Assembly: GCF_024223415.1 (NCBI RefSeq)
Contig: NZ_CP100500.1
DNA length: 64,000 nt
DNA from: Escherichia coli
GTDB lineage: Bacteria > Pseudomonadota > Gammaproteobacteria > Enterobacterales > Enterobacteriaceae
Reading direction: 5' to 3' (one strand)
The position numbers and the translations under genes were made by a program. Shown in pieces: positions 14,749 through 52,107 of this stretch (its first letter is position 1; every line of letters begins with the position of its first letter). The notes under the pieces were generated by a model. The model was given only the letters and a program-made list of their open reading frames with translations. It made no database searches and was not told the DNA's origin.

Positions 14749-15167
14749 AGACGTTACTTAAGGAAGAAGATGAGCAACAGGCTACACGTACGATAAAAGA
14801 CATTTGGGTCATGAATACACGATCTGGATGGACGACATAAAGGTGATGATCTGCTCAAACCAACCAGCGTTTATGATCGATGCGACAGACAGAAGGAATG
14901 AACTACTACAATAAATAAAATCTGTCGCTGTGTGGCAAGGAAGATTTTCTTCAGGAGTGCTGGCTTATTGGGATTTTTAACACAATTTAGAGTGAGTTCA
15001 ATCAGCCACAAATCTGGATTCCTATGTCCGGATTTTTACCACAATCCCCTTATTGATTTTTATTAATCATTCACAATCTGTGATCTAGCTCGATTGCGAT
15101 TTGTATTTGACTTAATATAATCACCATGATTGTATTAAATCAAATTATAACAACAGGCGTAAAAACC

Positions 15168-30679: not shown

Positions 30680-31628
30680 TTCATAGTCCTTACTTTATGA
30701 AGGTTGCAGGAAGAAGGAATTACGTAAATACTGAGGGCACAGAAAGGCCGTACCACGGCATTAATAAAAGAGATAACCAGCAGCACAGACAACCTGATAA
30801 AAATGTTTTGTATTACCTCATTACAGCAACGAGGTAATATTTCAGAATACAGTGAGACTCTCTTAAACTGAGGACCAGTACGACTTACAACGGTAAAAAC
30901 ACACCTCATATAATTGAGTTTCAGGAAGCACCATTCAATTACTGTCTCCCTGACATTCACAAAAGTCAGTATCGGGTAGCTACAGGCAACATCGCTATTG
31001 ATACTCCCGCACCATTAAATAAAAACAGAGACTCTGCAGAGAGAGCCTACAGATATTTAACCTCTCCACATAAGAATAATGGTATACAGTCCCCACACCA
31101 TCAAAAGATTGCTTCAGGATAATATTTCCTCATACCTGTAAACAGTACTGAGCCATAACACCAAAACTGAAGATAACATGCACTGATACGTACTTAACAT
31201 CAGTTACGTATCAGACACACATCAGTGGATTAGCTCCCTCAACATCACAGCGAACATTATAATTTATCGCACTACTAAACACTCTCTGGCTGTATGAAGG
31301 CACATGCATTACGCATCTACGGAATGGTCAGCATACAGAGGAGTGACATTGTAAACAGATAACAGATAACATAACTCCCATTAATAATACTAATTAACCT
31401 AAATTATTTATTGAATACGAGAACAATGAGGGAACCTCCTCATCCAGGACTAATGCCAGCAATATCCTGAGCAACACTCTATCCAATAGTAAATAATGGT
31501 TATAACTGTTATATTTACTGACTGACCTGTACCAGCGTTCTGTAATACAACAACGCTGAGATGCTAATGGCATAAGTCTCCTCCGCTATTTACGGAGGAG
31601 ACTATATGTTACTCAACGATTAAGTCAT

Positions 31629-33062: not shown

Positions 33063-33321
33063 AAATACCTCAATTTTAGTTAATAAATCAGTAAAGTAGC
33101 AGATATTCCCGCTATAATAGCCAAAATAGCTGCTATGCATAGCCGATATGTTCTGAAAAATACAGTAATCGGGCATACCTGATGTTGAACAAAACGATAA
33201 GGTTGATTCAATTCAGCCTGTATTATTAGCTACGTAACATCATTCACATTGCTCACTCCTGACATCTTCTGATGATTATTTCAACGACGCCTTATTCATG
33301 GTCGTTTTCCTTTTTCATGAA

Positions 33322-33543
33322 TCAAAAAACAACCATAGTGTAAATATTCATGGGTTCACGAAAATTATCTAATCTGCACACATTAGTCAGATCCTGACGG
33401 GAAATTGACATATCTGTTAATACTGGCATTGCCATCAGAGTCAGAGGTACTTGTTTATTATATTGAGCTTTAATCATTGCCTTTCCCATCATTAATGATC
33501 GCGCATATACTGAATACGGCGTATCCGGTTTTATGTAAGACAT
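33322..33543 (-). pseudogene. Truncated tandem duplicate of the YfjI-like N-terminus (73 aa)
   Basis: DNA and protein alignable with the first ~90 codons of 31629-33062 (…VCR..N.R.P.N.Y.M…), then frame break and stop. Confidence 0.5.
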
Positions 33544-33718
33544 AAATGCTTCCTTTGTCGTAATGCGTGTCGGTTATAGCAGCAATTACCGCTACAATAG
33601 CGACAATAGCTGCTCTTTCAACAATGAATGCTGGAAATTCTGTTTATCAATTAAACTTCTGGCTAAATTATTCTTATGCTTCTTTTTCCTCCTGAGGTGA
33701 TCACGTGATGACAAAAAC

Positions 33719-34015
33719 TTATCTGCTCATGGTCATATCTGAAGAAAGCGTATGTCGCACTTCGTCATTAACACCTTTTACTGCTGATCTGGCTGGTACA
33801 GTATGTAAAGTAAGCCATTCGTCAATAGCTGATGAACGCCAGCCCACAGAACCACTACCAAGACGTACCGGCCTTGGGAAGGTTGCATCGTAATATTTCG
33901 ATAACGGATTCATTTTTTCGTAAATTGTCGAACGAGATATACCTAACAATTGGCTCAGTTCAGGCATCCGTAAGATGCGTGAAGGAGTCCAGCAGTGTCC
34001 GGATTGATCTGGCAT
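33719..34015 (-). CDS. alpA: AlpA-family phage regulatory protein
   Basis: …ILRMPELSQLLGISRSTIYEKMNPLSKYYDATFPRPVRLGSGSVGWRSSAIDEWL… matches the AlpA fold; start at internal ATG. Confidence 0.7.
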   Translation of the reverse strand: MPDQSGHCWTPSRILRMPELSQLLGISRSTIYEKMNPLSKYYDATFPRPVRLGSGSVGWRSSAIDEWLTLHTVPARSAVKGVNDEVRHTLSSDMTMSR

Positions 34016-34223
34016 TTTATCCCCCTTAGTGTGGTGAACTGTCGTTACAGTTTGTATTCCTCGGGTAAATTTTTCTGCGTAAAAAAATGGGTTGAGCAAA
34101 AAGACAATAAACAACTAAAAATCAATATGATAGGAAACAACAGCATTATTGTTATTTTACTTTTCCCTTATCGCTGTCGATTCTCATTATCATTCATGGC
34201 AAAAAAACAGTAAAAGAGGCCCT

Positions 34224-34971
34224 AGTAATGACTCCGGTCAGTAGTACATGTGCTTCGATAAATGAACCAATGGCTTTTCGTTAATTTCCACGGAGCGTGA
34301 AAAGCAAATCGTTTTCAGGGATGGGAGTTTGATGTGAGTACGAAGTATCAGATTGTTGCGCTCAATGCGCCGGGTAAATATCCTGCCGACAGGATGCTTA
34401 TCCTGTGGTACTTCTCTGGTATAACTGCACCAGTTTTCACTGGTTATCATGCCTGAGGAGAATGGCTTCAGAAGTTCCGGCAACTCACTACATGTTTCAT
34501 CAGTACGAGGACCAAAAGTGTAAGCCCGCACACCGCCAGATTTGGTGTTATACGCATACCAGAGCCAGTGCTGACGAGCTTTGTTTCCGACAAAGCTCCA
34601 TTGTTCATCAAGTTCGCATATAAGCGCCACATCGGCACTGGCGACTGGAGATGTGGTTACTTTGCATGGTGAGCGTTTTTTAAAGTGCGAATGACTGTGT
34701 TGATACCCACCTTCAGTGTTCTGGAGGTATCGCGAACCCCGGTTCCGTTATGAGCCATTTCAACGATTTGCTCTTTAACACTTGGTTTTCGGGCTTCGCA
34801 GGTGTAATTCAGTTGAAATACACGTTTGCAGGAGCGGCACTGGAAACAGTGCTGTGACCGTGACGGTACACTTTATCGGAATTACAGCGGGGACAATGTA
34901 CGGTAACTGTTGCCATATGGACTCCGGATACCAACAGAATACCCCATTAATCTGCCCCCGGAAGTCATCCC
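34224..34971 (-). mobile_element. IS1-family insertion sequence, divergent copy with frameshifted insA
   Basis: Terminus AGTAATGACTCC at 34224-34235; InsA-like start at 34916; A6C frameshift motif before insB'. Confidence 0.7.
34238..34630 (-). CDS. insB: IS1 transposase InsB' segment
   Basis: ICELDEQWSFVGNKARQHWLWYAYN…RTHIKLPSLKTICFSRSVEINEK matches IS1 InsB. Confidence 0.75.
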   Translation of the reverse strand: MALICELDEQWSFVGNKARQHWLWYAYNTKSGGVRAYTFGPRTDETCSELPELLKPFSSGMITSENWCSYTREVPQDKHPVGRIFTRRIERNNLILRTHIKLPSLKTICFSRSVEINEKPLVHLSKHMYY

Positions 34972-35111
34972 GGTGCCTTCTGACATAATCTGTTAATACA
35001 TGAATTATTGCCCTGTTCAGAAAATATTAATTAAAAAATGAAAACCAGTTAACAGAAAAGCCACATGACATAATGTTAAAATTTTATATCGTGCAATAAA
35101 AGGAGAATGTT

Positions 35112-36938
35112 ATGTACAATTTTATCACTATAATGTATGATGTCTTTTCATGTTTTGGTGTTCTGGCTAAAAACCAGAATATCCGTGACATCCGAAATAT
35201 TAAAAACTTTTCCTCACATCAACATTCACTGGCCGACATGTTTGATGAATTAACATACATTATTGACAAAGAACAGGTACTGAGCACAGAACAACGAAAA
35301 GTTATATTCAGGAGATATGAAGATCTGTATGTTAAACTCATGCACTATTCTGTTTTTACAGACAAAACACATCAAATAATAAAACAAAAATATTTTAATG
35401 ATGTTGTTCCAATGATTCTCGCGCTCGACATCAGGAACACATATCGCCCGGATAATGAGATGGCATTTTACTATCATATCCATTCTTTTCTCACTCAGAT
35501 ACCGGATAATGAGGATGATATATATCATGCTGTAAGGACATATATGAGAAATTATGTTAAGTTATGTTTATCCGGATACACACCAACGAATGCGCATTTC
35601 AAAAATATCTTTGATGGAGTATATGAATTCATTCGTAATATTCGCAAAAACAGTACACCCGGAAAAACAAAACTTATTGCAGCTATCAACATATGCAAAG
35701 AAGCCTGTAAATATCTGCTTTGTTTAAGTGATAAAGACAAGGAAATAATATTTTCCGACTTAGATAAAATTCAGGTTGCATGTTATTCTCTCACTATATT
35801 ACTGGCTTTCGAAAGACGAACATCATTAACAAGTAACCTGGCAACTTTATATAAAATGCTGATAAACGAAAGAGAAGTTTCAGAATATGAATGTCAGCAA
35901 TTATATTTAATCAACCCAATAGATGTAATGAATATACTGAACAAATACATATATTACTTCCCTGGTGAGAATTCACCTCTTTATACACTGAAAATTGACA
36001 GTGCATTATCGTGGGATGCCATTGATGCAATACGAGACTATAGTATTTCTGATATTTATCTTTATCCTGAACAAAAAACAATAAATTGTATCGTTGAGAT
36101 TGAAAACATTGTCTTTGGCGGTTACATTTATACATTGAGCGACGGCGTCACATTACAAAATATGGAAAACACTTTAAAAGATTCCTCATGTCATTATGTA
36201 TTAAATGGCTATACAGAATTTGTTAACTGTTTAAGACAACTTACTTCAGGAAAGACTGAAAGTGTTCAGCGTACCATTAATAAACTGGAGTACGAAAAAT
36301 TACCTTTTGGATTTATCATTGCCGCGTTTGCTATATTAAAAATAGCATTTAAGATAAAGTTCAGTAAAAATCATGTAAATACCAGGGCATTATTAAATGA
36401 CATCAGTTATTTTATGACTTATCAGGGCGAGTCCATTAATCTTATTTCACTGGATCATGAATATCCAGAGTTCCGTCTTCAAAATGACACAAATACATAT
36501 TTATTGGGAAGGATGATATTTCTATATAACTCAATGATCTATAAATTCAGAAACTGCCAGGAACATGAAACCAATAACATTAACTCAGTTATGATAAATA
36601 ACCTATTACAGGAAGTTGATATAGCCCTTGGTAAAATAAATGACATTATAGACAGCAGAAACATATCAGTCCCCCATGAACTGGCAAATATTCTTATCCA
36701 CGAAAAAATACTTACAACACGTGAAAAAAAAGGAAACCTGATAAGCCTGTTTGATGGATTCACTTTATTCCATTGTGTTGGAATGATAACCTTTCTTATC
36801 CATTACCTCAGAACTCCTGAAGAAAAAGTAGAAAATGTATTTATGTTATATGGTGCAGATAAAAACAATAAACTACGCAGAAGACTGATTTATGATGCAC
36901 TAGAAATAATTCAGTCTCAGCAGGAGATGAAACCTTAA
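35112..36938 (+). CDS. Hypothetical protein, 608 aa, AT-rich orphan (no recognisable domain)
   Basis: AAGGAG six nt upstream of the ATG; composition far more AT-rich than flanks; hairpin 36962-36986 downstream. Confidence 0.8.
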   Translation: MYNFITIMYDVFSCFGVLAKNQNIRDIRNIKNFSSHQHSLADMFDELTYIIDKEQVLSTEQRKVIFRRYEDLYVKLMHYSVFTDKTHQIIKQKYFNDVVPMILALDIRNTYRPDNEMAFYYHIHSFLTQIPDNEDDIYHAVRTYMRNYVKLCLSGYTPTNAHFKNIFDGVYEFIRNIRKNSTPGKTKLIAAINICKEACKYLLCLSDKDKEIIFSDLDKIQVACYSLTILLAFERRTSLTSNLATLYKMLINEREVSEYECQQLYLINPIDVMNILNKYIYYFPGENSPLYTLKIDSALSWDAIDAIRDYSISDIYLYPEQKTINCIVEIENIVFGGYIYTLSDGVTLQNMENTLKDSSCHYVLNGYTEFVNCLRQLTSGKTESVQRTINKLEYEKLPFGFIIAAFAILKIAFKIKFSKNHVNTRALLNDISYFMTYQGESINLISLDHEYPEFRLQNDTNTYLLGRMIFLYNSMIYKFRNCQEHETNNINSVMINNLLQEVDIALGKINDIIDSRNISVPHELANILIHEKILTTREKKGNLISLFDGFTLFHCVGMITFLIHYLRTPEEKVENVFMLYGADKNNKLRRRLIYDALEIIQSQQEMKP

Positions 36939-36961
36939 ACAGGAAAATTATTTTTTATAAA

Positions 36962-36986
36962 CAGGGGATTATTGAGTAATCCCCTG
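36962..36986. terminator. Hairpin CAGGGGATTA-N5-TAATCCCCTG between the convergent 608-aa ORF and int
   Basis: Perfect 10-bp inverted repeat; T-run on the minus-strand side. Confidence 0.5.
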
Positions 36987-37122
36987 CTCATCAAAACCCA
37001 CTTTCCTGACAATCTGATAACTATCAGCTCAATACATTTGACATAAAAGAGATCCCTTAATTATTACCGTTACGGTCACAATCACATATCAAATCATGAT
37101 TGTACAATATACATTTTCACTA

Positions 37123-38325
37123 TTATTTATTCATAATCTGAGACATCACATAATCCGCCCATGCCTGCATCATCGGTACACGCTGCTCCAGTAGATCAGT
37201 ACGATGATATGCCGCCTCAACCTTATTTTTCAGCGTATGAGCGAGCGCCCTTTCAGCCAGATCCCGCGAATACCCCTGCTCACTACACCAGTCCCTGAAT
37301 GTTGAACGAAAACCATGTGCCGTGGCGACTCGCCCCGGAATATCACTGACGGCTTTCTTTTTACGCAGAAAACTGGTCAACACCATATCTGAAAGGATCT
37401 GCTGCTTTCTGGGTGAAGGAAACACCAGTTCATCATGCAGACCACGTATATTTTCCAGAATGTAAATAGCCTGTCGGGATAAAGGAACACGATGCTGTAC
37501 CCTGGCTTTCATTCTTTCTGCTGGTATCGTCCATATCTGCTTATGAAAATCAATTTCAGTCCAGCGCATTCCCCTGGCTTCACCCGAGCGGGTTGCTGTA
37601 AGTATCACCATTAATAACAATGCGCGGGTAACATTATAGGGTTCATCGGTATACACACTGGTCGCCACAAAAAGCGGTAACTGCCTCCATGGCATTGCGG
37701 GTTGGTGTTCATCACGTCCTCTTGTCTGCTGGGGAAGCAAATGATCAACCACATCCACAGGATTTGCCACACAAAAACCATGTGCCCATCCCCACTGCAT
37801 AACAACATGAATGCGCTGTTTAACCCGGCTTGCCGTTTCTGACAAAGTTAACCAGACTGGCCGCAGTGTTTCTGCCACGTCCGCAGCCGTAATCGAATCC
37901 AGCGTTTTCGCTCCCAGTTGAGGAAAGGCGTAATTCTCAAGCGTCGATAACCACTGCCGGACATGCTTTGGATTTTCCCATCCAGGAGACAGTTCTGCAT
38001 GTACACGTCTGGCTGCATCGGCAAATGTTGGGATAACAACTTTTTCAGCCTCAGCCTTTTTAATCTCCAGAGGATCATCACCAGCAGCAAGTTGCTCTCG
38101 CATTATCCGGGCAGTACGTGCAGCTTCAGCAATGCTGATCTCAGGGTAAGTTCCCAATCCAGCATTACGCCTTTTTTGTGTCACCGGACTTACATAACGA
38201 AAAACCCATTTACCCCGACCCTTTACTGAAGAAGGATGAAGGGTCAGTCCTGTAATTCCCCCATGGGGCAATGGTTTGTCATCAGGTTTGATATGCCTTG
38301 CTTTCGTATCCGTCAATACTGCCAT
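37123..38325 (-). CDS. int: Tyrosine-type site-specific integrase (P4/CP4-57 IntA-like)
   Basis: IntA-like N-terminus and C-terminal catalytic region (…HGFRSTFRDW…, …LAHTLKNKVEAAYHR…). Confidence 0.9.
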   Translation of the reverse strand: MAVLTDTKARHIKPDDKPLPHGGITGLTLHPSSVKGRGKWVFRYVSPVTQKRRNAGLGTYPEISIAEAARTARIMREQLAAGDDPLEIKKAEAEKVVIPTFADAARRVHAELSPGWENPKHVRQWLSTLENYAFPQLGAKTLDSITAADVAETLRPVWLTLSETASRVKQRIHVVMQWGWAHGFCVANPVDVVDHLLPQQTRGRDEHQPAMPWRQLPLFVATSVYTDEPYNVTRALLLMVILTATRSGEARGMRWTEIDFHKQIWTIPAERMKARVQHRVPLSRQAIYILENIRGLHDELVFPSPRKQQILSDMVLTSFLRKKKAVSDIPGRVATAHGFRSTFRDWCSEQGYSRDLAERALAHTLKNKVEAAYHRTDLLEQRVPMMQAWADYVMSQIMNK

Positions 38326-38343
38326 ACGCTAATTCCTGTTACT

Positions 38344-38367
38344 CTGGTATGCCATCTGGTATGCCAT
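38344..38367. repeat. Tandem 12-bp direct repeat CTGGTATGCCAT x2 upstream of int
   Basis: Two exact adjacent copies; possible integrase arm-type or promoter element. Confidence 0.5.
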
Positions 38368-38485
38368 TATCTTCACGCTTCAGTCAGAATACAGTAGATG
38401 ACATCAGACAGTAAAATATGCAATATACTGTTTATAATCAAATTTTATGACACAACAGGACTCATTCAGATTCATTTCAGGCGGT

Positions 38486-38499
38486 CCCCCTCACCGCCA
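38486..38499 (+). other. 3' remnant of tRNA-Ser (serW-type att core)
   Basis: CCCCCTCACCGCCA matches the last 14 nt of E. coli tRNA-Ser(GGA); the remainder of the tRNA is absent upstream. Confidence 0.5.
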
Positions 38500-38500
38500 T

Positions 38501-38540
38501 ATTTAAAGAAGAGCTCGTACGAAAGTGCGAGCTTTTTTTT
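38501..38540 (+). terminator. Rho-independent terminator after the tRNA remnant
   Basis: GAGCTCG-N10-CGAGC followed by a nine-T run. Confidence 0.6.
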
Positions 38541-38543
38541 TCG

Positions 38544-38692
38544 CATTTTATCTGCCTGTACGGCAGTGAACATGGTGGGCGGGTGGAGTATGTTACCAGT
38601 GAATTTCTAAGCTGCCTGTACGGCAGTGAACGTTTGCTGCAACCGCTAGCCAAGACGGTAGGTTTTTCTAAGCTGCCTGTACGGCAGTGAAC
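38544..38692 (-). CRISPR. Orphan type I-F CRISPR mini-array (3 repeats, 2 spacers, no cas genes in window)
   Basis: Two exact copies of TTTCTAAGCTGCCTGTACGGCAGTGAAC (38604-38631, 38665-38692) plus a degenerate copy ending at 38571; spacers of 32-33 bp. Confidence 0.8.
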
Positions 38693-38850
38693 TCAAATAC
38701 TACACGTTTAGCCCGTTGTTAATAAAGCAAAACCATCCCATTCTCCTGCAGCACCCTTTTTTATCCTTACCTTCCAGCAGCACTAATTATCAACAACTTA
38801 CCTTCACCTCCAAAAATAGGGTTTTCACCGTTCCACCCCATAAATAAAAA

Positions 38851-38878
38851 GTCCGTAACCTCTTTCGAGATTACGGAC
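38851..38878 (-). terminator. clpA rho-independent terminator
   Basis: GTCCGTAA…TTACGGAC hairpin just downstream of the clpA stop, with a T-run on the minus strand. Confidence 0.6.
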
Positions 38879-38903
38879 TTCACCAACCTACCTGACAATC
38901 AGA

Positions 38904-41615: not shown

Positions 41616-41637
41616 ATGATAGATAACTATCATTTAT
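41616..41637. repeat. Left attachment-site direct repeat ATGATAGATAACTATCATTTAT
   Basis: Matches the right repeat at 52086-52107 at 20 of 22 positions. Confidence 0.6.
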
Positions 41638-42554
41638 ATCATTTAGTTAATTAGTCTTTATTTTTCATTATGTTGCAAATAACAAGCCCGTCAAAAACAG
41701 TGATATTAACTACACCATTAACTACACCGCTTCACGAACAATATCGAACAACCGCGAACAAAGATCAACACGCTTTAATCATTATCATTTTCCGGCTATC
41801 CGTCATGAAGCTGGTGGATGATCTGCGTGGTGATTTCCACCATTCAGAGCAGGTGCGGTCATCATGACCATGCCATAACAAAAACCCCATATTCGTGGTT
41901 TTTCTGTGTCGGGGCTATTCTGCTGTTGCCGTGCTGGTGGATATTCTCCGGTATGCGGCTCCCCATATCGGCATCAGGCCCACCAGCGTGAAGCGTTTTT
42001 CATTTTTCGCGGGTATAAAAAATCGATGGGGCGGGCAGTCCTGAAGACGTCAGGGTACAGAGATTTGACCCGCCCCTCCCTGTGCATGAGCACAATAAGT
42101 AACCGAAGGCGGAATTCCGCCCTCGGTACTTACATATGAGAAACGATATTTCTTCCACCGATACCCTTTATTTGGGTATCGCGAGTAAGCCCCAAAATCT
42201 GGGTGTTACTCTTACTACCCAAACTACGGGTAGTTTCCGTAGTTTCATGGTCGAGTTGCAAATCTGCAACTCACCCACCAGCCAGCGCAATGTCGCATTA
42301 TCAGTCCTCAGATGTGAGGGATGTAGCCAGCTTTTCCCCCAGTGGGGATTATCCAGTTACCGACGGTTTAACCGCCTGTACCAGCACAACGAAAGAATTT
42401 GCGGGTAGCTTTAAACTACTCACAACATCCCATCTTACAGGCCGTGCCTTTCTAACTTTTTACAATGCAATAAGTCAGGTAACGCTATGCGTTCCACCGT
42501 GTACACCGCGCCAGTAAAACCCCCGGATTCGTGGTTTTCCTGAATATCAGGAAT

Positions 42555-42929
42555 CTACCGCCGCAACCGTTCCGGCTTCTTCCACTGATAAGTGTTTTTC
42601 GCGCTCTCCCTCCGTTGTTGAGAACGGCGACGGTATGCCAGCAACTCAAGGACTCTGGTTCGTATGTTGCGCATATCCACGCCGTTAAGCTCAATACCAT
42701 CACGGCGCATCACCTCAGCAACAACACACGCGTAATTTTCGGCTATCACGCTGTCCGGCTGCGTGGCCTCCTGTTCGCCAGCCTGCTGGCTGATTCCGGT
42801 AATACTGCGGATTATCCCGAGCGCTTCGGTCTCGGTCATGGTCATGGCCTCCATAGTGATGGCGGGTCCTCCTTGTGGGGTGCCCTGCCACGGGGCGGGA
42901 GCATCGCGGAAAAAGGCTAGTTTTTGCAT
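42555..42929 (-). CDS. Hypothetical protein (PICI accessory end; start uncertain)
   Basis: ORF only; no motif recognised. Confidence 0.35.
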   Translation of the reverse strand: MQKLAFFRDAPAPWQGTPQGGPAITMEAMTMTETEALGIIRSITGISQQAGEQEATQPDSVIAENYACVVAEVMRRDGIELNGVDMRNIRTRVLELLAYRRRSQQRRESAKNTYQWKKPERLRR

Positions 42930-43090
42930 TTTTATTCGTTATCACCACCAATGCAATATATTGATATGACTTGATGTTTTATTTTTCGGTGTCGATTTCG
43001 ATTGTTTTTTGTTCATCACTGACGCATAACGCCCACCAGCGCAACGCTGAAAGCCAGTCAGTAAACTGGCTTCGGTCATTGTGCACTACG

Positions 43091-43618
43091 TTACTTGTCT
43101 TTATCCGGCTGAAACTTATCAGGCACATTTCCGGTAGTTTCCATCAGATAATCGGACAGCATTCGCGGGATGTTTTCATCAAGTTTTGTGCATGCGTTAC
43201 AGGCTCTGACAACTTCTTTTTTCAGGCCATCCAGCATGGCGGGGGTCATCTGTGGGAAGCTCCTTTGCATAGTAAGCGGGAGGCTGTCCATGATTGATGA
43301 AATCTGACTCGCCAGTTTTGAAAGCGCGTACATGCAAAACTCTGTATCAATCACGTCACCGCGATCGCGCTCGTTTTTAAGTTCCTGCGCCTCCGCCTGT
43401 GCTGTCAGTAATCTGATCCTGACTCGTAAAAGTTCATCATCGTCAATCTCGCCTTTGTCGTTTGTAATCTGGCTGATTGCATTGTTAACCCGATTATCTA
43501 TTACACTGGCGACATCATAAAACGTCTCACGGCCCTTACGCTCGACGGGAATCACTCCCCACTTATCGAACGCAGTGGCGCTTACTCGGCAGCTTTTCGC
43601 CATGTTTTTTTTATTCAT
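43091..43618 (-). CDS. Small-terminase (lambda Nu1-like) homologue, candidate packaging-redirecting protein
   Basis: Collinear with lambda Nu1 as recalled (N-terminal HTH region, then …LTAQAEAQELKNERD…DTEFCMYALSKLASQISSIMDSLPLTMQRSFP…). Confidence 0.8.
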   Translation of the reverse strand: MNKKNMAKSCRVSATAFDKWGVIPVERKGRETFYDVASVIDNRVNNAISQITNDKGEIDDDELLRVRIRLLTAQAEAQELKNERDRGDVIDTEFCMYALSKLASQISSIMDSLPLTMQRSFPQMTPAMLDGLKKEVVRACNACTKLDENIPRMLSDYLMETTGNVPDKFQPDKDK

Positions 43619-43699
43619 CAGGTGCGATTTCATCAATACCCCCACTTAATTAATGCTTCAGGTTGGTGTGTTGGTGTTATCTTTCCATTTTTATTCATA

Positions 43700-43840
43700 G
43701 AGATAGAGCGAACAACAAAACCACCACCAACCCGAAAAGGCTCATAAATAGCGAAAATCCGCAAGGTCGACGCCCCGTAACGGGTCCACATGCCGGAAAG
43801 GACCCATAAAAAATAAAGCCGGACTACTCCGGCTTCGTCT
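43700..43840 (-). other. Lambda-type cos site (cosQ-cosN-cosB-like)
   Basis: Minus strand reads GGGTCCTTTCCGG…GTTACGGGGCGTCGACCTTGCGGATTTTCGCTATTTATGA, near-identical to the lambda cos region as recalled. Confidence 0.7.
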
Positions 43841-43858
43841 CTTCATGTGGTCAGGGTT

Positions 43859-44443
43859 TTATGCTTTCCGTACGCCCGAGGAACTGGCATTTTTCAGAAT
43901 AATATTATGCCCTGCTGGTGGCTTACCGTTATGCTTATTTTCTGCCTTCATGTTTCTGCGCTCCTGCTGTTTTTTCTTCATCTCATCCAGTCGCTTCCCC
44001 GCGTTCAACTGGTGCTCCTGTGTCACCTCCCCGCACGGATGGCCTTTCAGGTCGTAACGCACGCCACCAGCCATCAGGGAACGGTAATATCGCACTGAAC
44101 TGACATAATACGCCAGCGTTGCGCGAAGCGCTCCCTGACCTAATGAAATACCTCTCGCAGTAATATCCTCCATCAGGTCATCAAATATGCCAACCTTAAG
44201 CGGTCTGGGCGATTCCTGGCTGAAAAGTTCAGGCCAGAGCGCGGCAAGGCGTTCAACGCGTCTGATATTTTTTTTCCGGCTCTTTTCTGATTTGCGTTTT
44301 GCTGCCGTCTTCTGTTGTGTTTTCTGCTCGCGGCTCTGCTTTTGCGCTGGTGTGGTTTTATCCGGCTGTTCAGCCTCCTGCGTCTTTTTCTGCGGTGTGC
44401 CGTATATGCCTTTTGGTTTTCGGTTAATGGTCAGCTTTGTCAT
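43859..44443 (-). CDS. ProQ/FinO-domain RNA-binding-like protein
   Basis: Basic Lys-rich N-terminus followed by LAALWPELFS…PLKVGIFDDL… typical of ProQ/FinO domains. Confidence 0.55.
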   Translation of the reverse strand: MTKLTINRKPKGIYGTPQKKTQEAEQPDKTTPAQKQSREQKTQQKTAAKRKSEKSRKKNIRRVERLAALWPELFSQESPRPLKVGIFDDLMEDITARGISLGQGALRATLAYYVSSVRYYRSLMAGGVRYDLKGHPCGEVTQEHQLNAGKRLDEMKKKQQERRNMKAENKHNGKPPAGHNIILKNASSSGVRKA

Positions 44444-44522
44444 GTTCTCCCCCTTTGTGCTGTTCCACCAGCGGCATCTGCTACCCCGTGTCGCTCCCGC
44501 TGGTGTCGTGTTTCCCCGCCTG

Positions 44523-44843
44523 TTAATAACCGTCATCATTTACGTTATCAGGGTAATCACGCCATATTTCATCAGTAAGCGACGGTAGCCCCATCTGTTG
44601 TATTGTCCTGTCTGCGGCCCTTCTGACTGCGTGAACATCATAACGGTTTTCAGGTATCGGGCGCTTTGCCTTCCTGATACATTCCCTTGCTCTCATTGCC
44701 GCAAGTTCTCTGTGCCTGTCTTCCTGAAGAGTAATCATCACATCCTGCCACCTTCTGGCAGCCCGTCGCCACAGTCCCCTGCTCTCGAGTTCTTCTGCTG
44801 TCGCGTCGCTTATTGTCCGGTTCTTCGGTGTGCTGTTGTTCAT
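44523..44843 (-). CDS. PerC-family transcriptional activator-like protein
   Basis: …AEELESRGLWRRAARRWQDVM… PerC-like signature. Confidence 0.55.
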   Translation of the reverse strand: MNNSTPKNRTISDATAEELESRGLWRRAARRWQDVMITLQEDRHRELAAMRARECIRKAKRPIPENRYDVHAVRRAADRTIQQMGLPSLTDEIWRDYPDNVNDDGY

Positions 44844-44860
44844 GTTGCTCCCCGCCTGAT

Positions 44861-45271
44861 TCAGAAGGGTATATCATCTCCGTAGGGGTCATCGCCTCCC
44901 GCTGGTGGCTTATTCCCCTGTGCGCCTGTGGTTTTGCGTGTTTTTCCGCCCGGTCGCACTGTCCGCGCACTGATTACGCTGTCTGCGATAACCTGCCAGC
45001 CCTGCCGCGTTTCCCCGTTCTGTCCGGTCCACTGGCTCACCTGCATGTTACCCGCCACGCTCAGGAGTTCACCCTTGCGGTGCTTTGCCAGTGCTTCGGC
45101 CTGTCTGCCAAACGCCAGCACAGATAACCACATCGTCGCCGTTCCGTCATCTGCCTGGCTGCACGGAAGGGGGACCGCCATACTCGCCATCGCCATTTGT
45201 GTCCCCTTGCTGGTGGTCTTTAACTGCGGGTCAGCCACCAGCCGCCCGTAAGCCGCTATCTGTGCTGTCAT
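44861..45271 (-). CDS. ssb: Single-stranded DNA-binding protein (SSB-like)
   Basis: OB-fold-like N-terminus and Gly/Pro-rich tail ending in the acidic DDIPF motif. Confidence 0.75.
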   Translation of the reverse strand: MTAQIAAYGRLVADPQLKTTSKGTQMAMASMAVPLPCSQADDGTATMWLSVLAFGRQAEALAKHRKGELLSVAGNMQVSQWTGQNGETRQGWQVIADSVISARTVRPGGKTRKTTGAQGNKPPAGGDDPYGDDIPF

Positions 45272-45525
45272 GCTGTATGCTCTCCGGTTTTAACGTTGAT
45301 GGTTGTCACCTGTTCCGCTCCGGCAATCTCCCGTTCTGTCAGCGTGGCAAAATTTGCCGCTACCGTTGTCATGAATGCGCTTATCAGTGCGGGATGTGCT
45401 TTCGCGTATCCTTCTCCCGCGCTGCGGTCGATAATTTTTATCGCCACCCTCAGCCAGTGCTCTGTAAGGTCAATGGCGCGGTTATGTGGTTTCTTCTGAT
45501 TATTAAGTTTTCCTGATGTGTGCAT
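45268..45525 (-). CDS. Hypothetical protein (85 aa)
   Basis: ORF coupled by overlap to ssb. Confidence 0.4.
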   Translation of the reverse strand: MHTSGKLNNQKKPHNRAIDLTEHWLRVAIKIIDRSAGEGYAKAHPALISAFMTTVAANFATLTEREIAGAEQVTTINVKTGEHTA

Positions 45526-45569
45526 TTTTATTTTTACCCCCTCGTTTAAAAAGTTTTGTGTTGTGGTGC

Positions 45570-45805
45570 ACCTCCTCTACCTCTCTACACAATCATCTTT
45601 CAGGTCAGTAATGGCGCGGCTTTCAGCGGGGTAGAGGGCTTTTTTGGCCCTCTACCTGCCATCTACCACCCCCTCACAAATGCCCTGAATTATGGTAGAG
45701 GGTGTAGAGGGCTTTTAAGTACCTTCTACCTGCCATCTACCCAATCTATCAACATGAAATATATGTAATTATTTTCTTAAGGTAGAAGGGGTAGAGGGCT
45801 TTTGT
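45570..45805. repeat. Iteron cluster, candidate replication origin of the island
   Basis: GTAGAGGGCTTTT x3 (45631, 45704, 45790) and CT(C/T)CTACCTGCCATCTACC x2 (45651, 45724), directly downstream of the replication gene. Confidence 0.6.
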
Positions 45806-45811
45806 CTAAAA

Positions 45812-47560
45812 CTATAAAAACGCGTCGCAGTCGTCTGTTGTTGTCACGTTGGTTTGCGTAACCCCTTTAATCCTGCGCGTTATATATTCATGTCCGTAAA
45901 CTTTCGCCGCTGGCTTCATGGCCTTGCTGAACTCAGCCACGTTCAGCGGTTTGCTCCTGCCTGCATACGCCATAAACGCCAGATAGACGCGGTAAAGGCT
46001 GTTTCTGGTCGTGTACTTCACGGAATCGCCACCGCCCCCCATCATCAGGCCACGTGCTTCCTCCAGAAAATTCAGGAACTGGCAAAACTCAATAACCGGA
46101 TCCGTTTGCTGCTTTATCGCCAGTGCTTCATCACCGTCACGCTGTTCCAGTAGTAAAGCCCGCGCCTTTTCAGGGTCTGCAAAGTTCGCCAGTAATCGGC
46201 GGATAATGACGGGGATTTCAGCCGCAATCCTTTCCGGTAGCTCCCTGTCTTTTTCAGCCTCACTGACGATATTGTCGAAACGAAAAATCACGCGACGACG
46301 TGCCACACCTCCGGCCCGTTCGGTGAATATCATCGGGTTATTGTTGGTCGCCAGCACCACCGCCCTGATTACAGCCGTGAAACGCTTTTCGTATTTCGGG
46401 TTAATTTCCACGGGGTCACCGCCCGTGATTTTCTTGATGCCCGTTCCTTCGCCTGTATATTTCGGCTGGTCTGCCAGGACGATAAGACGACTCCCGACAA
46501 CCTGCGCACGCCCACCAGCATCATCAAGCGATGTCATCTCAGCGCTTACCGTGTTCTGTTTCCCTGCCAGAAGGCTGGCTATGTGCGTGAATGTACTTTT
46601 ACCGCTCCCGCCGTCTCCGGTGGCCTCAATAAACATCTGCCAGTCGTACCGGTTCGCCATAATCATGTACAGCGCGGCACATATACGCATCATCTTGCGC
46701 GGGTCTTTTCCGGCTGCGTGCTCAAGCCATTTATGAAAGTTTGGCGCGTTATCGCGGATGTTCTCCCCAGGTGCTGGTGGCGTGTACTCAATGCCATTGT
46801 GCGTGGTGATCCAGTTCTCCGGCGTGTGCGGGGAAAATTCCCCCGTTTTCAGGTCAAGCGCACCATTGGCGAACGGCAGCAAATCGCCGGACGGCTCGCC
46901 CATTGGTTCGGCAATAACTTTTAACGCTTCCACGGCGTTATTGATTACGCGCTTGCTGAAAGTGGCCCTGTGCTCTGAATAGATCGCCACCATTTCGCGG
47001 CTCAGTTCCATTGTGCTGACCGGACACCATACCCCGCCGCGCCATACGTGAACGATTTCACTTTCCGGATGCACACAAACGCCATCAAATCGACCAGCAA
47101 GCATCTGTGCGCGCTCACTGTCTGCCATTTGTGCCAGTTGCGTATTTTTCTGCTCCGGCATGGTAAGCCCTGCAGCAATATTTTCACGCTCAGCATTCAG
47201 ATAACGCCGCCAGTTTTCACACTTCTGACCGTGCATTCCTTCGGGGTAAAAATTTGCGTCCTGTACGCCAGCCGCCGCCAGCTTCTGACCAATCGCCTTT
47301 ATCATTACTGGCGCAAGATATCCGGCCCTGAATATACGCACGGATTTTCTGCCTTCCGGCACAATTTGCAGCTTATCCAGTTCGGATAACTGCTGCTCCC
47401 CAAGCCACACAGGAGGCTCATTATCTCCGGCCATACGCGCGTCATGTTCCTGCCATTGTTTCGCGTGTGCCCAGGCATCACTACCCGCAAAAATAATGAC
47501 TTCAGTTCCTTTGTGTTTTATGCCGCGTGACTGCAGTTTTACGTTCGGTGCCAGTTTCAT
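45812..47560 (-). CDS. Replication protein with SF3-type helicase domain (P4-alpha/D5-like primase C-terminal region)
   Basis: Walker A ATGDGGSGKST and Walker B-like RLIVLAD in the C-terminal half. Confidence 0.8.
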   Translation of the reverse strand: MKLAPNVKLQSRGIKHKGTEVIIFAGSDAWAHAKQWQEHDARMAGDNEPPVWLGEQQLSELDKLQIVPEGRKSVRIFRAGYLAPVMIKAIGQKLAAAGVQDANFYPEGMHGQKCENWRRYLNAERENIAAGLTMPEQKNTQLAQMADSERAQMLAGRFDGVCVHPESEIVHVWRGGVWCPVSTMELSREMVAIYSEHRATFSKRVINNAVEALKVIAEPMGEPSGDLLPFANGALDLKTGEFSPHTPENWITTHNGIEYTPPAPGENIRDNAPNFHKWLEHAAGKDPRKMMRICAALYMIMANRYDWQMFIEATGDGGSGKSTFTHIASLLAGKQNTVSAEMTSLDDAGGRAQVVGSRLIVLADQPKYTGEGTGIKKITGGDPVEINPKYEKRFTAVIRAVVLATNNNPMIFTERAGGVARRRVIFRFDNIVSEAEKDRELPERIAAEIPVIIRRLLANFADPEKARALLLEQRDGDEALAIKQQTDPVIEFCQFLNFLEEARGLMMGGGGDSVKYTTRNSLYRVYLAFMAYAGRSKPLNVAEFSKAMKPAAKVYGHEYITRRIKGVTQTNVTTTDDCDAFL

Positions 47561-47856
47561 TTTTTACCCCTGAATCCGTTAATCATGGTTTTCATCTTCT
47601 GAATATTGGCGCGTGCTTTCTCCCTGCTGGTGGGCACGTTACGCGGTACGGCCTGCACAAGAGAAAAATCACGCACAAACTGATAAACAGGCATCACGCA
47701 ATCATATTCGTAACCTTCATGGCGGTAGGTGATGCGCCGTTCTGCCACGCCTTTAATCGTTACCGTACCGCCGTAGTTATCACGGAAAATATCGCCGGGA
47801 CGGATTTCAGGCCGAGTGAGGCCGCTGGCAGTAAAGCCAGAATTTTTCTTTTTCAT
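47557..47856 (-). CDS. Hypothetical protein (99 aa), overlap-coupled to the replication gene
   Basis: ORF with 4-bp overlap to the downstream gene. Confidence 0.45.
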   Translation of the reverse strand: MKKKNSGFTASGLTRPEIRPGDIFRDNYGGTVTIKGVAERRITYRHEGYEYDCVMPVYQFVRDFSLVQAVPRNVPTSREKARANIQKMKTMINGFRGKK

Positions 47857-48052
47857 GGTTTTATTTTCCTGTCAGTGATTCCGGCTTTATTCCGGCGCGA
47901 ATACAGGCTTCAGAAAAAAAGCCAGAGAACCAATAACCTCATTATTTCTAAGGCGGCATTGCGATTTCACTTTCCCTTTATCCAGGAATATCAAAACGCG
48001 CCCCGTATAATCAGATGGCACATTAAGCACTACAGGTAAGTGCGCTTCATGA

Positions 48053-48340
48053 TTATTCATGGCTAACCACCTCCTGGAATTTTCTTCTGTAACGCGCCTC
48101 TGCCACATATTCAGCATAGTCCGACGCAATATTGAGAATATCGCTACCCGTTCCTGAATGTTCGGCGGTTTCCAGTAAAAAACATGCAGCTTTTACCATG
48201 TCAGCAACACATAACAGCGCAATATCTGTATCTTCCGGTGTGCCATCAAATTCCTGTTTCAGGGCATTAAAACGATCATCACGCATAACCCCATATTCAC
48301 AATCAGCAATCAGGATGGCTTTGGCCTCATTCAGTGCCAT
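48053..48340 (-). CDS. Hypothetical protein (~95 aa; only plausible part of the long ORF 48053-50041)
   Basis: C-terminal segment reads like protein while the rest of the 662-aa frame is low-complexity; start at ATG 48340 assumed. Confidence 0.35.
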   Translation of the reverse strand: MALNEAKAILIADCEYGVMRDDRFNALKQEFDGTPEDTDIALLCVADMVKAACFLLETAEHSGTGSDILNIASDYAEYVAEARYRRKFQEVVSHE

Positions 48341-49381
48341 ATCAGCGGTAAGCTGTGCGTAGGCCAGCAAATGCGGGATTATTGCCCCTGTATATTCCGG
48401 CTCTCTGATAATGTGGTCGGATGTGTTGATTAAATAGTTTGTGCGAAAAATGCACCTGTAACCATCAGTTAACAACGGATATACAGGGGGGACCATGAAT
48501 GATAAGGGGGTGCCGTTTGATGTGCTCCTGCAAAAGCTGAATGCTGCACGCGCCGCAAGGGAACGTGAGCGCATGAGTAATAACCCTGTCCCTCCTGAAT
48601 TACCTCGCCCTGAACATTTTCCGCTTGAGGATTTCATCAGGGGACGAATCCGAACAAAACGATAACCGCCGCCGTGATATGAGGCATCACGACGCAATGC
48701 ATTACAGGTGAGCACCATGAACAAATCCATATTATCCCCCACAGTTCTGGACGTAAACACAAAGCAGCGACAGATATTATTACGCGCCGTCATTAAAGCC
48801 AGACACGAGAAATTAAACCAAATCTTAAAATAAGATACGCCGCTACCGCTGTAAGTCTTCATCAGAAACAGAAAACGCCAGAGCAGATGAGCACGGAGGT
48901 AACTCTTTATGAAAATAAACGAATCAGGGGAAATTACCGAAGCCAGCGTGGTACGCCAGCGGAGGCGGGAACGACGGGTACGGCCCCCCGCGCCATCCGA
49001 TAATTTCCCGCTTGAGCGCTTCATCAGTGAACGGCCCCGCATACGCTGGAACGGCACAACCCCATACCCCGAGGAGAGACAGACAAAAAACAAACAGCGA
49101 TGATGAAATCTGGAGGCCAATACCATCACCCAGCCAGTCGGGGATTGCTGGCGGGCTTCCTGTTCGCTGGTGGCCCCGATGGTAATAACGCGTGGTTGTG
49201 CTGTGCTCAGGGCGATAAAACGCCAGATGTATTTATTCAGGTTGTGCGGGTCCCGCCCTTGCGGGTGTGTGGTATGATTTAACATAGCTACCTCGATACG
49301 CTTTCTATCGTTGGTGGTTAGAAGCCCCGTTACTGCTCCAACAGTGCGGGGTTTCGTCGTTTCTGCACCTTTCATCAACAA

Positions 49382-49435
49382 GGTGTTGAACACCAATTTA
49401 AGCCTAGGTGTTAAACACGCCAAGTGTTGAACACT
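49382..49435. promoter_or_regulatory. Three operator-like palindromes (GGTGTTGAACACC / GGTGTTAAACACG / AGTGTTGAACACT)
   Basis: Three 13-bp near-identical inverted repeats within 55 bp, in the regulatory region downstream of alpA. Confidence 0.5.
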
Positions 49436-50051
49436 TATTTTTTTTCCTGCATACTGCATTTGTTTTTTGTAAGGGGTACACAACATGGCGACAAAAGCAG
49501 TAAACGCAAAATCACAAACAGTTGCGGCAAGGGTTCCGCATGAAGTTATGAACAATGTTGAGGCGGTAAAAATGCCTGGTGAAAGTACAGGGCAGTTTGT
49601 AACAGCAGCATTAAAGCGAGAAGTTGAATACCGCCAGCGCCGCAAGGCCAAAGAATCAGAATAATCACTATCAGCGCCGTGGTGTGAGGTACTGCGGCGC
49701 ATTGTTTTAAAGGTGATAATTATGAATAACCAGGAACTACAAAATAAAGCATTATCAATTATCATGCGCCAGCGTGAGAAAACCCGCAGGGAAATAAATA
49801 AGGCATTAACCCGTACTGAAAATCTTAAAGTTCCTGATAAGTTCGCCCTTGATCCTTTTGTCGAGAAATACCCTCGGCGCTTAAAAGCAAACAAAAACCG
49901 CCCACCTGGCTGACAATCCACCAGCAAGCCACCACACTGGACACATTGCCCACCAGCCAGCAAATCGCTATGATGTTCGGGCTTATGTTTAGTGTTTTCC
50001 CATTGGCGACCGCCCCCGGTCGCCTTTGTTTTATGTGTCATATACTCCCCT

Positions 50052-50348
50052 TTACGCTGCCTTGCCTGAATTAATGCGATCCCGGCTTTTAACCCATTCC
50101 ATAACCTCGGACAGCAGCCAACCTACAGAACGCCCACCAAGATTACGGCGAGACGGAAAGCTCCCTTTTTTCTCCAGTTCGTAGCGTGTAGTGCGACACA
50201 CTCCAGTTAACTTACGACATTCATCCTCACGGATTACGCGATCTTCATTTATTTCACGCATACAAAAACCTACATAAAAATTACGTATATAAACTTTTCT
50301 CTTAGCTGTAGATATATGAGATCGGATATTACTTAGATTCTTTTTCAC
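50052..50348 (-). CDS. alpA: AlpA-family regulator/excisionase-like protein (start uncertain)
   Basis: …RKLTGVCRTTRYELEKKGSFPSRRNLGGRSVGWLLSEVMEWV… AlpA signature; the 50348 start is GTG. Confidence 0.6.
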   Translation of the reverse strand: MKKNLSNIRSHISTAKRKVYIRNFYVGFCMREINEDRVIREDECRKLTGVCRTTRYELEKKGSFPSRRNLGGRSVGWLLSEVMEWVKSRDRINSGKAA

Positions 50349-50680
50349 CTCTTAAATTAAAAACACAACCATGCTAAAGGCTTTGTTCGCTAAGGTTCGT
50401 AGAAGCTCGTTAGTGTTTAAAATCGTGTCACGAGTTTTTAAGCGACGCAACAAAAAATGTCGTCATTTGGCATGTCACCTGAATTACCTCATTAAAAACA
50501 AATAGATAAACCATCAGATGTTGGAACAATCAAGAAACAGAGAATAAGAACTCAGAAGAAGACATTTCAATTTTTTTCGATAGTTGACACATATAAAGAG
50601 AAGATATTTGCAGATATTCCCCGATATTCTAAGATCTATTCACGGCTGTAATCTCTTAAAGAAAAAACAGCCGTAATTTG

Positions 50681-51919
50681 TCAAGAATTTTGGGGGTAAA
50701 TTCGCGGGGTCATAACAACGATTTTTTCATCATTGTTCTGGAGAAGCTCGAGACGGTCTACCCATAGATTAAGAGCGTCACGCTTTGCATCGAGATAACG
50801 GGAGTGGTTATAGACGCGTTGCATTCCTGGCATCTGGTGGGCAGTAAGCTGTTCAACAATATGCGGATCCACGCCTAAATCGTTCAGCATGGTTGTAAAT
50901 GTGTGCCGGATGTCGTGCAACGACCAGGGGGCTTGATTAATGCGTCTGTGTGCCGTTCTTCCGTACTCTGCTACGGATGATTGCCCTTTCAGTTCTCCAA
51001 GCAATAAGCCCGTGTGCCTGTTCTGCTCCACCAGCTTCATGACGAACGGCAAGATCGCTTCCGGTATTGGCCTGAATATTGCTACCTTCGTTTTGCTGTG
51101 TTCTTTCGGCACAGTCCAGAGCATTTCTTTAAAATCCCATTCCCGAACCTCGGAGCGTCTTAGCTCAGTGGTACGGCATCCGAAGACAATCAGAAGGCGA
51201 ATTAAAGCGCTGTAGTACGGCGGGAAAATTTTTTCATCCAGTGCGCGGAGTAGCTCGCCAAGCTCCTTGTTTGTTAGCACTCGCTCGCTTATTTCTGCTT
51301 TTTTTCCCACATCACCTACGACCATATCATCAAGAACGTTACTGACGGCGTAGCGACGTTTACGGCAGTACTTAAGCGCCTGTTTGCATACCTGCAACAA
51401 AAAGCCGGCTGATACCGGATTACGCTTAGCAAGCTGGTCAAAACAGGCCAGCCAGTGGCGTAGCTCGCATTTATCCAGCGGCATAGCACCAATCTGGCTG
51501 ATTATGTGCTTATTGATACGGCTTTTCAGTGATTCGTGGTCAGTGCGCTTTTCCTTCGCATACGACTCAAGCCAGTAAGTGAGCGCGTCCTTAACCGTCA
51601 CGGGGGCTAACGCTTCCTGCACTGTGTGATTAAGCTCATGGCGTGGATTTTTCCCCTCCGCCAGCCAGGCGCGACACTGTGCCGCTTTTTCCCTGGCTGC
51701 TTTCAGGCTCAGATCGGGATAGTTGCCCAGTCTCAGGCGTTCCGGTGATACCTGCCTGCCAGTTCCGGCCCTGTAAGTGAAATACCAGGTTAACAGGCCG
51801 CTGGTGGAATGTCTTACGCTAAGATTGCCACCGTCATTAAAAAAGGCGTTTTTTGTGGTTGGTGATCCGCTTAATTTTCGTAAAAGAGTGTCGCTAAGTC
51901 TATGAATTGCGCTGCTCAT
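50681..51919 (-). CDS. int: Tyrosine-type site-specific integrase
   Basis: C-terminal catalytic region with …LHDIRHTFTTML… and …VYNHSRYLD…; hairpin 50644-50676 downstream. Confidence 0.9.
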   Translation of the reverse strand: MSSAIHRLSDTLLRKLSGSPTTKNAFFNDGGNLSVRHSTSGLLTWYFTYRAGTGRQVSPERLRLGNYPDLSLKAAREKAAQCRAWLAEGKNPRHELNHTVQEALAPVTVKDALTYWLESYAKEKRTDHESLKSRINKHIISQIGAMPLDKCELRHWLACFDQLAKRNPVSAGFLLQVCKQALKYCRKRRYAVSNVLDDMVVGDVGKKAEISERVLTNKELGELLRALDEKIFPPYYSALIRLLIVFGCRTTELRRSEVREWDFKEMLWTVPKEHSKTKVAIFRPIPEAILPFVMKLVEQNRHTGLLLGELKGQSSVAEYGRTAHRRINQAPWSLHDIRHTFTTMLNDLGVDPHIVEQLTAHQMPGMQRVYNHSRYLDAKRDALNLWVDRLELLQNNDEKIVVMTPRIYPQNS

Positions 51920-52085
51920 GTTTCGCGTTTCCGGTCATCAAAATTAACTACACCATTGACTACACCGTGCATCGTACAAGGGCAAACCGTGACGAACAAG
52001 AGCGAACAAGTAAAACAAAATTTTCCTTTATAATCATAGCGATGAATGCACACAAAACACTACCACGAACACCCGCGAACACTAG

Positions 52086-52107
52086 ATGATAAATAACTAT
52101 CATCTAT
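52086..52107. repeat. Right attachment-site direct repeat ATGATAAATAACTATCATCTAT
   Basis: Pairs with 41616-41637. Confidence 0.6.

Follow-up and report, generated by a model that had tools for sequence, protein, structure and literature searches.

A lambda-like cos site beside a Nu1-family small terminase gene in a PICI-type satellite of Escherichia coli

A PICI-type satellite between cspD and clpS

The window, by which we mean the whole 64-kb stretch of E. coli DNA that was analyzed, carries an integrated satellite that contains the cos site and small terminase gene considered here. Annotation of the island was derived from a near-identical island in NZ_CP182371 and from Pfam matches. The element and the last gene of its array are as follows.

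41616..52103, minus strand: host satellite of ~10.47 kb between cspD/yljB and clpS, from comparison with the empty K-12 site, annotation, and Pfam
42555..42839, minus strand: conserved 94-aa ORF (phrog_1561), found after terS or rpp in all related satellites examined

Comparison with the empty K-12 site identifies the att core as the 18-bp sequence ATGATAGTTATYTATCAT, present at 41616-41633 and 52086-52103. The genes lie on one strand in the order integrase (a tyrosine integrase), AlpA-like HTH, Icd-like, DUF4222, D5-type primase, SSB, PerC, ProQ/FinO, terminator, cos, terS, and the 94-aa ORF. With this gene set (cf. PMC6092414), a size of ~10 kb, its own att, and no tail or lysis genes, the element is a Gram-negative PICI. 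No TerL gene follows terS or lies anywhere else in the island, and we saw no helper prophage within the 64-kb window.

Several further observations concern the island itself. A 15-bp repeat, ATTAACTACACCATT, was considered as the att core and rejected because the comparison with the empty K-12 site gives ATGATAGTTATYTATCAT; these repeats are internal and of the integrase arm type. Tandem pairs of GGTGTAGTTAAT repeats, plus TTGTTCG repeats, occur near both island ends (41660-41790 and 51900-52010) and, judged by sequence, are probably integrase arm-type or accessory binding sites. The ~900 bp between the 94-aa ORF and attR (41634-42555) hold no convincing gene. The Icd-like gene (~48053-49285, minus strand; 14716-15948 in locus L003) encodes 410 aa, compared with the ~65-aa Icd-like ORFs of relatives, and may represent a fusion or the acquisition of an extra domain. 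An Rfam scan of the island returned only a sub-threshold cspA-thermoregulator match, located outside the island.

Just 5' of cos lies a ProQ/FinO-family gene (43859-44539, minus strand; annotated CDS of 194 aa, longest ORF of 226 aa), and a gene for a PerC-family regulator (44523-44843, minus strand) is also 5' of cos. Since relatives have major-capsid, head-decoration, and 137-aa genes 5' of cos, a capsid-related module has been lost or replaced in this island.

Elsewhere in the window, a second integrative element lies 3' of clpA (30116-38900), with a P4-type integrase gene (37123-38325, minus strand) and a gene for a DUF3987 protein (31629-33176). Near this element are three copies of a type I-F CRISPR repeat, CTGCCTGTACGGCAGTGAAC, at about 38560-38760 and a 14-nt remnant of a tRNA-Ser 3' end. 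ARAGORN found no tRNA genes in the window, although serW is expected at the locus of the second element. Collinearity of the window with strain Br_112_kylling begins only at about 38.8 kb.

The cos junction and the adjacent terS gene

We numbered cos on the minus strand with +1 at window position 43775. Immediately 5' of the ORF at 43091-43633, the minus strand reads TTTTTTATGGGTCCTTTCCGGCATGTGGACCCGTTACG, then GGGCGTCGACCT, then TGCGGATTTTCGCTATTTATGAGCCTTTTCGGGTTGG, and the features of this region are, in the direction of transcription:

43815..43836, minus strand: terminator-like hairpin GAAGCCGGAGTAGTCCGGCTTT followed by a T run, from a terminator scan
43793..43805, minus strand: cosQ block GGGTCCTTTCCGG, an exact match to lambda
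43764..43781, minus strand: cosN, composed of GTTACG and the predicted 12-nt cohesive end GGGCGTCGACCT (43775-43764), identical to the lambda cohesive end at 11/12 positions
43742..43763, minus strand: cosN-proximal spacer TGCGGATTTTCGCTATTTATGA at +13..+34, the counterpart of the lambda cosN-R3 interval
43725..43736, minus strand: left arm TTCGGGTTGGTG of a 12-bp inverted repeat, overlapping the start of the R3 equivalent
43711..43728, minus strand: candidate TerS-binding site (R3 equivalent) GGTGGTGGTTTTGTTGTT at +48..+65, proposed from position and co-variation
43657..43668, minus strand: right arm CACCAACCTGAA of the inverted repeat at +108..+119, from a repeat search
43091..43633 (stop included), minus strand: terS, encoding a Nu1-family small terminase of 180 aa, with ATG at 43633 and the RBS GGGGG at 43639-43643

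The sequence-only reading had described this region as almost like the lambda cosQ-cosN-cosB junction. When the lambda reference (NC_001416, with both ends joined into a circular junction) was aligned to the window, the minus strand of 43729-43810 gave a local alignment over lambda -35..+47 with a score of 88, compared to 19.3±2.8 and a maximum of 35 for shuffled sequences (n=200). The similarity to lambda cos is significant, and the description stood for cosQ, cosN, and the first ~35 bp that follow. It failed for cosB, which differs from that of lambda and in architecture resembles the single-R3 cosB of N15 rather than the lambda R3/I1/R2/R1 arrangement.

The cosQ core GGGTCCT (43799-43805) is located at -30..-24 from the top-strand nick, with the same spacing as in lambda. 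The cosQ block GGGTCCTTTCCGG has a single exact occurrence in the window, and in the census described below its core is kept at 24/24 loci of window-type satellites and at almost every phage locus. The nicks are predicted to fall between 43776 and 43775 on the top strand and between 43764 and 43763 on the bottom strand. The cohesive-end 12-mer differs from that of lambda by one base (G6T), a variant also present in 3/24 window-type loci and in 3/3 loci with a chimeric TerS. We found GTTACGGGGCGKCGACCT once in 64 kb, against 0.03 occurrences expected. The 22 bp after the 12-mer are conserved relative to lambda, and CGCTATTTATGA is invariant among lambda, cos1 of the island EcCICFT073, and TerS-type satellites; past about +47 there is no further resemblance to lambda. 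The terS ATG is at +143 from the nick, compared to +191 in lambda and +89 in N15.

The hairpin closes the ProQ/FinO-family gene that lies 5' of it, and cosQ follows directly on the T run; a near-identical hairpin precedes cos in EcCICFT073 and in the island EcCIIHE3034. A promoter scan detected no sigma-70-like promoter between this terminator and terS. Cos-motif searches of the window revealed no second cos (cos2, as in EcCICFT073 and EcCIIHE3034) in the island. In those two islands, a second cos core lies inverted just 3' of rppA or terS (L017 18275-18338; L144 13844-13908), and that of EcCICFT073 is the published cos2.

At the cosB position of the island cos, we detected none of the lambda R3/R2/R1 sequences (CGTTTCC type), and a search between the candidate sites gave no match to the IHF consensus with up to 2 mismatches, whereas lambda I1 matches it with 1 mismatch. 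The candidate TerS-binding site at +48..+65 corresponds in position to lambda R3 at bp 50-65 and to the single N15 R3 at bp 48-60 (PMC9026076), which reads GAGGTTGTTGTTT. The arms of the inverted repeat, which flank an A/T-rich stretch, are 92% complementary and 56 nt apart, a weak signal in that 6/200 shuffles do as well; the repeat is kept in close relatives but not in a 59%-identical relative. The right arm may be a second site of R2 type or may belong to the terS leader.

The (GGT)n run inside the R3 equivalent is 3 bp shorter in the window than in 22/24 relatives. Correspondingly, the TTTTGTT block (site 43711-43736) starts at +56 in the window, at +59 in 22/24 relatives, and at +53 in L014. 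Another relative, L106, encodes a TerS 100% identical to the window protein yet has the longer run. This variation resembles slippage within a protein-binding site, for which the distance to cosN should be critical. Spacing changes of 3 bp between cosN and R3 cripple lambda (PMC9026076), and the shorter run of the window could matter if spacing is critical as in lambda.

The terS product can be aligned over its whole length with lambda Nu1 (181 aa) at 37% identity (E = 1e-36), scores 82.3 bits against Pfam Phage_Nu1 (PF07471; cut-off 30), and matches phrog_57 'terminase small subunit' over residues 1-173 (1.9e-52). An AlphaFold2 model built from a 53-sequence family alignment (pLDDT 90.7) predicts an N-terminal strand-helix-helix-hairpin-helix followed by long helices, as in the TerS winged-helix fold. 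An N15-type winged HTH (~residues 5-58) is followed by a central helical region, and the C-terminal part aligns as far as the end of Nu1. A proposed alignment with Nu1 that included the HTH was thus upheld over the full length and, for the HTH, at the level of fold, but by sequence the DNA-binding domain is of N15 type.

In a 50,697-record phage collection, the best overall TerS identity is 47%, to N15 gp1, which is 50% identical in the N-terminal half and has the same AFDKWG recognition helix; the corresponding lambda helix is IQNWQE. A search with the N-terminal half by itself matched 41 phage records (N15, an Enterobacter phage, Pseudomonas D3-like phages, and one Alteromonas phage), among which there were no lambda-like coliphages. 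By sequence, the DNA-binding half belongs to the N15/D3 subtype and not to the lambda subtype. In the C-terminal half, identity is 46% to lambda and at most 57% to any phage in the collection. Compared with helper or lambda TerS, identity is 44-49% over the C-terminal half and 38-40% over the last 45 residues. Assignment of the protein to the Rpp family was considered and rejected, given a BLASTP E value of 1.3 against RppA (CFT073 c1503) and a 180-aa product with full-length Nu1 architecture.

Satellite relatives, cosB co-variation, and a natural helper-satellite pair

At E ≤ 1e-5, the protein database contains 220 relatives of this TerS, and almost all of them are E. coli proteins with the annotation 'terminase small subunit'. 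All of the relatives whose contexts we opened are in satellites, and none has a large terminase. Their layout runs from int and alpA through a helicase or primase, SSB, and PerC, often with major-capsid and head-decoration homologues, to cos-terS and the 94-aa ORF. This arrangement without TerL is found at several att sites, and other Enterobacteriaceae have it as well.

We then compared cos loci in a redundant sample that combined at least 120 IMG/VR loci containing the 16-mer TTTTCGCTATTTATGA with loci collected earlier, classifying each by the first gene 3' of cos. An adjacent TerL-like ORF was found in 0/24 loci with a window-type TerS, 20 of which had at least 400 nt of room, compared to 65/71 loci for six phage TerS classes combined (47/50, 7/7, 7/8, 2/2, 2/2, and 2/2 by class). 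This difference indicates a satellite lineage of the Nu1 family rather than a phage terminase operon. Across TerS classes, the cosQ core and the cosN 12-mer are nearly constant. The sequence at bp 44-66, by contrast, follows the class of the TerS DNA-binding domain:

bp 44-66, lambda class: GGCGTTTCCGTTCTTC
bp 44-66, phi80-like class: ATCATGTCGGTACTTC
bp 44-66, N15-like phages: GGGTGGTTGTTGTTT
bp 44-66, window-type satellites: GGTGGTGGTGGTTTTGTTG
bp 44-66, RppA-type satellites: GAAGGTGACACCACCACC

A natural chimera, P0099, is the most informative case. This 194-aa satellite TerS (listed on 107 contigs; L008-L010 are satellites beside phoQ) has a lambda-like N-terminal half (59% identical to lambda) and a C-terminal half 100% identical to that of the window protein, and it sits behind a lambda-like R3/R2 cosB. 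From these sequences, cosB and the DNA-binding domain appear to be swapped as a unit. The terS ORF is intact and under purifying selection, with dN/dS of 0.08-0.16 relative to relatives. Synonymous divergence from relatives is 0.34-0.47 in the N-terminal half and ~0 in the C-terminal half, a contrast that marks recombination at the conserved AQELKN stretch.

The 59%-identical relative, P0111, is encoded in a satellite inserted in gene E of a lambda-like prophage; satellites inside a helper prophage have been described as the 'helper-embedded satellite' type (bioRxiv 10.1101/2022.07.18.500453). This locus, L141 (GCA_000493175.1, 967580-987912), brings together helper Nu1, A, and cos with satellite TerS and cos, and L140 and L142 contain the same prophage without the satellite. 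In the helper, a TerS with 86% identity to lambda Nu1 goes with a lambda-like cosB. Satellite and helper share the cosN 12-mer (12/12) and the cosQ core, and the satellite cosB is GGTGGTGGTGTTGTT. The two TerS proteins are 43% identical overall, with 36% in the N-terminal half, 49% in the C-terminal half, and 38% over the last 45 residues.

Possible routes to packaging and comparison with known systems

We consider it probable that the cos-terS module provides a satellite TerS that reads a private cosB and directs the TerL of a lambda-family helper to a shared cosN. A lambda-family helper would induce the island, leading to its excision and replication into concatemers. The satellite TerS would bind its own cosB at +48..+65 through the N15-type winged helix and would bring the helper large terminase (gpA family) to the adjacent cosN, with helper TerL recruited, as we propose, through the conserved C-terminal half of the satellite protein. 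TerL would then make the 12-nt staggered cut and translocate the DNA into helper capsids, and packaging would terminate at a downstream cosQ/cosN. At 10.5 kb per unit, a lambda-sized head would be full with about four units (42 kb). The sequence pattern fits a satellite that keeps the TerL-facing signals (cosN, cosQ, and spacer) and owns the specificity protein and its site.

How helper TerL would be engaged is a separate question. Murialdo and Feiss have argued that Rpps need helper TerS because they are without the C-terminal TerL-binding part (PMC9026076). The window protein keeps an alignable counterpart of this part, and the simplest prediction is direct recruitment of helper TerL. A broader reading, which we hold to be somewhat less likely than not, is that a satellite-only lineage of complete Nu1-type TerS proteins in enterobacterial PICIs binds helper TerL directly, with packaging independent of helper TerS. 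[quoted passage not shown] Direct TerL capture, if true, would be a third route beside carrying the helper's cos (P4 and cos-SaPIs) and converting the helper's TerS (Rpp). TerS-TerL pairing is specific in lambda and phage 21 (PMC9026076), and together with the low C-terminal identity this means that direct TerL binding is not assured. In addition, N15 terminase packages lambda DNA (PMC9026076), and an N15-type domain may therefore not discriminate sharply against a lambda-type helper cos.

Co-assembly of the satellite TerS with helper TerS in the manner of Rpps, through the central region or by DBD-DBD contacts as in RppC, strikes us as unlikely but deserving of attention. The mixed complex would read the island cosB, helper subunits would supply TerL, and helper TerS would be indispensable while helper packaging would be poisoned. 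The central oligomerization region is the stretch best conserved between helper and satellite TerS and would permit mixing with helper TerS just as well. Given this conservation and an extreme C terminus that is only ~40% identical, either direct TerL binding or co-assembly may apply. Against co-assembly, the window protein has no detectable similarity to RppA (BLASTP E = 1.3), the Rpp-specific C-terminal coiled-coil dimerization domain is absent, and the full TerS C-terminal part is kept, although it would be superfluous if TerL came by way of helper TerS (PMC9026076).

We regard as very improbable an interference-only decoy, in which the TerS homologue would sequester helper TerL or mis-target the terminase and cos would add little to spread of the island. 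Satellites often couple packaging proteins to helper interference, as with Rpp (PMC6739421), and EcCIIHE3034 was essentially untransferred (PMC6092414), but a pure decoy would give no reason for cosQ, cosN, and spacer to be almost invariant beside the gene in 24/24 relatives or for cosB to co-vary with the DNA-binding domain. Least credible of all is a relic, that is, the decaying left end of a lambda-like prophage with no present function: the order of cos then nu1 matches the lambda left end, and TerL does not follow, but the 10.5-kb satellite around the segment is intact and has att repeats, the intact ORF has dN/dS of 0.08-0.16, the same TerL-less arrangement occurs at several att sites and in other Enterobacteriaceae, and no phage TerS in the 50,697-record collection exceeds 47% identity.

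PICIs move virulence and defense genes between enterobacteria, and the packaging module decides which phage can mobilize which island. For cos-type Gram-negative PICIs, only the Rpp route is worked out; for TerS-encoding islands such as EcCIIHE3034, noted in 2018, we found no helper or mechanism in the searchable literature. Our comparisons yield specific targets in the R3 equivalent at +48..+65, the natural domain-swap chimera, and the natural helper-satellite pair. Direct binding of helper TerL makes the sharp prediction that transfer survives loss of the helper's terS.

TerS homologues in Gram-negative PICIs were reported in 2018 (PMC6092414), and SatelliteFinder treats terS as a PICI core component (bioRxiv 10.1101/2022.09.14.508007). 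A PICI cos with lambda-like cosQ and cosN and a private cosB is likewise known already and is established for the Rpp type. In the searchable literature, coverage of which is incomplete, we found no account of a Nu1-type PICI TerS that also covers its cos, the co-variation of cosB, or the mechanism.

Relative to the phages, lambda resembles the island in cosQ core and spacing, 11/12 cohesive-end bases, the proximal spacer, and TerS length and domain order, but differs in its R3/R2/R1 and IHF site, the presence of gene A, and another subtype of DNA-binding half. In N15, gp1 is the closest phage TerS, and cosB is short, with one G/T-rich R3 (bp 48-60) and without I1-R2-R1 (PMC9026076). N15 differs in being a complete phage in which gp1 overlaps the TerL gene, and its cohesive end is GGGCGGCGTCCG, whereas the island cosN and spacer are lambda-like. 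The SaPI TerS of S. aureus offers a pac-type parallel in which a satellite small terminase takes helper TerL to the satellite's own site (PMC6092414; bioRxiv 10.1101/2022.09.08.507074). SaPIs, however, use headful (pac) packaging, an unrelated TerS family, and a separate inhibitor, Ppi, in contrast to the cos-type island with cut sites common to the helper.

Rpps share with the window terS the slot just 3' of a PICI cos, and co-variation suggests that the window protein, too, would read the cosB beside it. RppA, RppB, and RppC, at 144-153 aa, have their own C-terminal coiled-coil dimerization domain, which the window protein is without, and RppA works by heterodimerizing with helper TerS (Fillol-Salom 2018, 2019; Murialdo & Feiss 2022). 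With phi80 ΔterS as the helper, EcCICFT073 is no longer transferred.

The closest known island is EcCIIHE3034, named by Fillol-Salom et al. (2018, ISME J) and one of two islands said to encode TerS (PMC6092414). It occupies the same cspD-clpS att site and has the backbone of the window island in integrase, AlpA-like HTH, primase, and SSB. The TerS proteins of the two islands are 87% identical, and the islands share the cosQ-cosN-spacer and the cosB type. EcCIIHE3034 differs in having major-capsid, head-decoration, and 137-aa genes 5' of cos where the window island has PerC and ProQ/FinO, an inverted cos2 3' of terS where the window island has one cos only, and a GGT run 3 bp longer. In the only published test, induction of its resident prophages gave essentially no transfer (PMC6092414, Table 1), which could mean that a matching helper was absent or that the module works poorly.

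EcCICFT073, also a PICI, has cosQ and cosN identical to those of lambda together with a private cosB, and directly 3' it encodes RppA, a winged-helix protein that confers specificity; its flanks are syntenic with those of the window island. It was shown by experiment to be packaged by lambda and phi80 (PMC6092414; PMC6739421). The cosQ-cosN-spacer block of the window is nearly identical to EcCICFT073 cos1, but the cosB sequences differ, and RppA (144 aa), without the TerS C-terminal part, occupies the terS slot. The sequence-only reading had seen direct evidence that the window island can be packaged by a cos-type helper phage. The PICI context, the EcCICFT073 cos1 block, and the L141 pair support an island built for such packaging, but 'direct evidence' is too strong, considering that EcCIIHE3034 is essentially untransferred. 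The island appears to be equipped for cos packaging and to be an ordinary member of the TerS-encoding PICI class. Homology between the window island and EcCICFT073 extends to ~+35 of cos and resumes ~170 nt past the gene, and this break in homology around cosB and the specificity gene indicates that the pair behaves as an exchangeable cassette.
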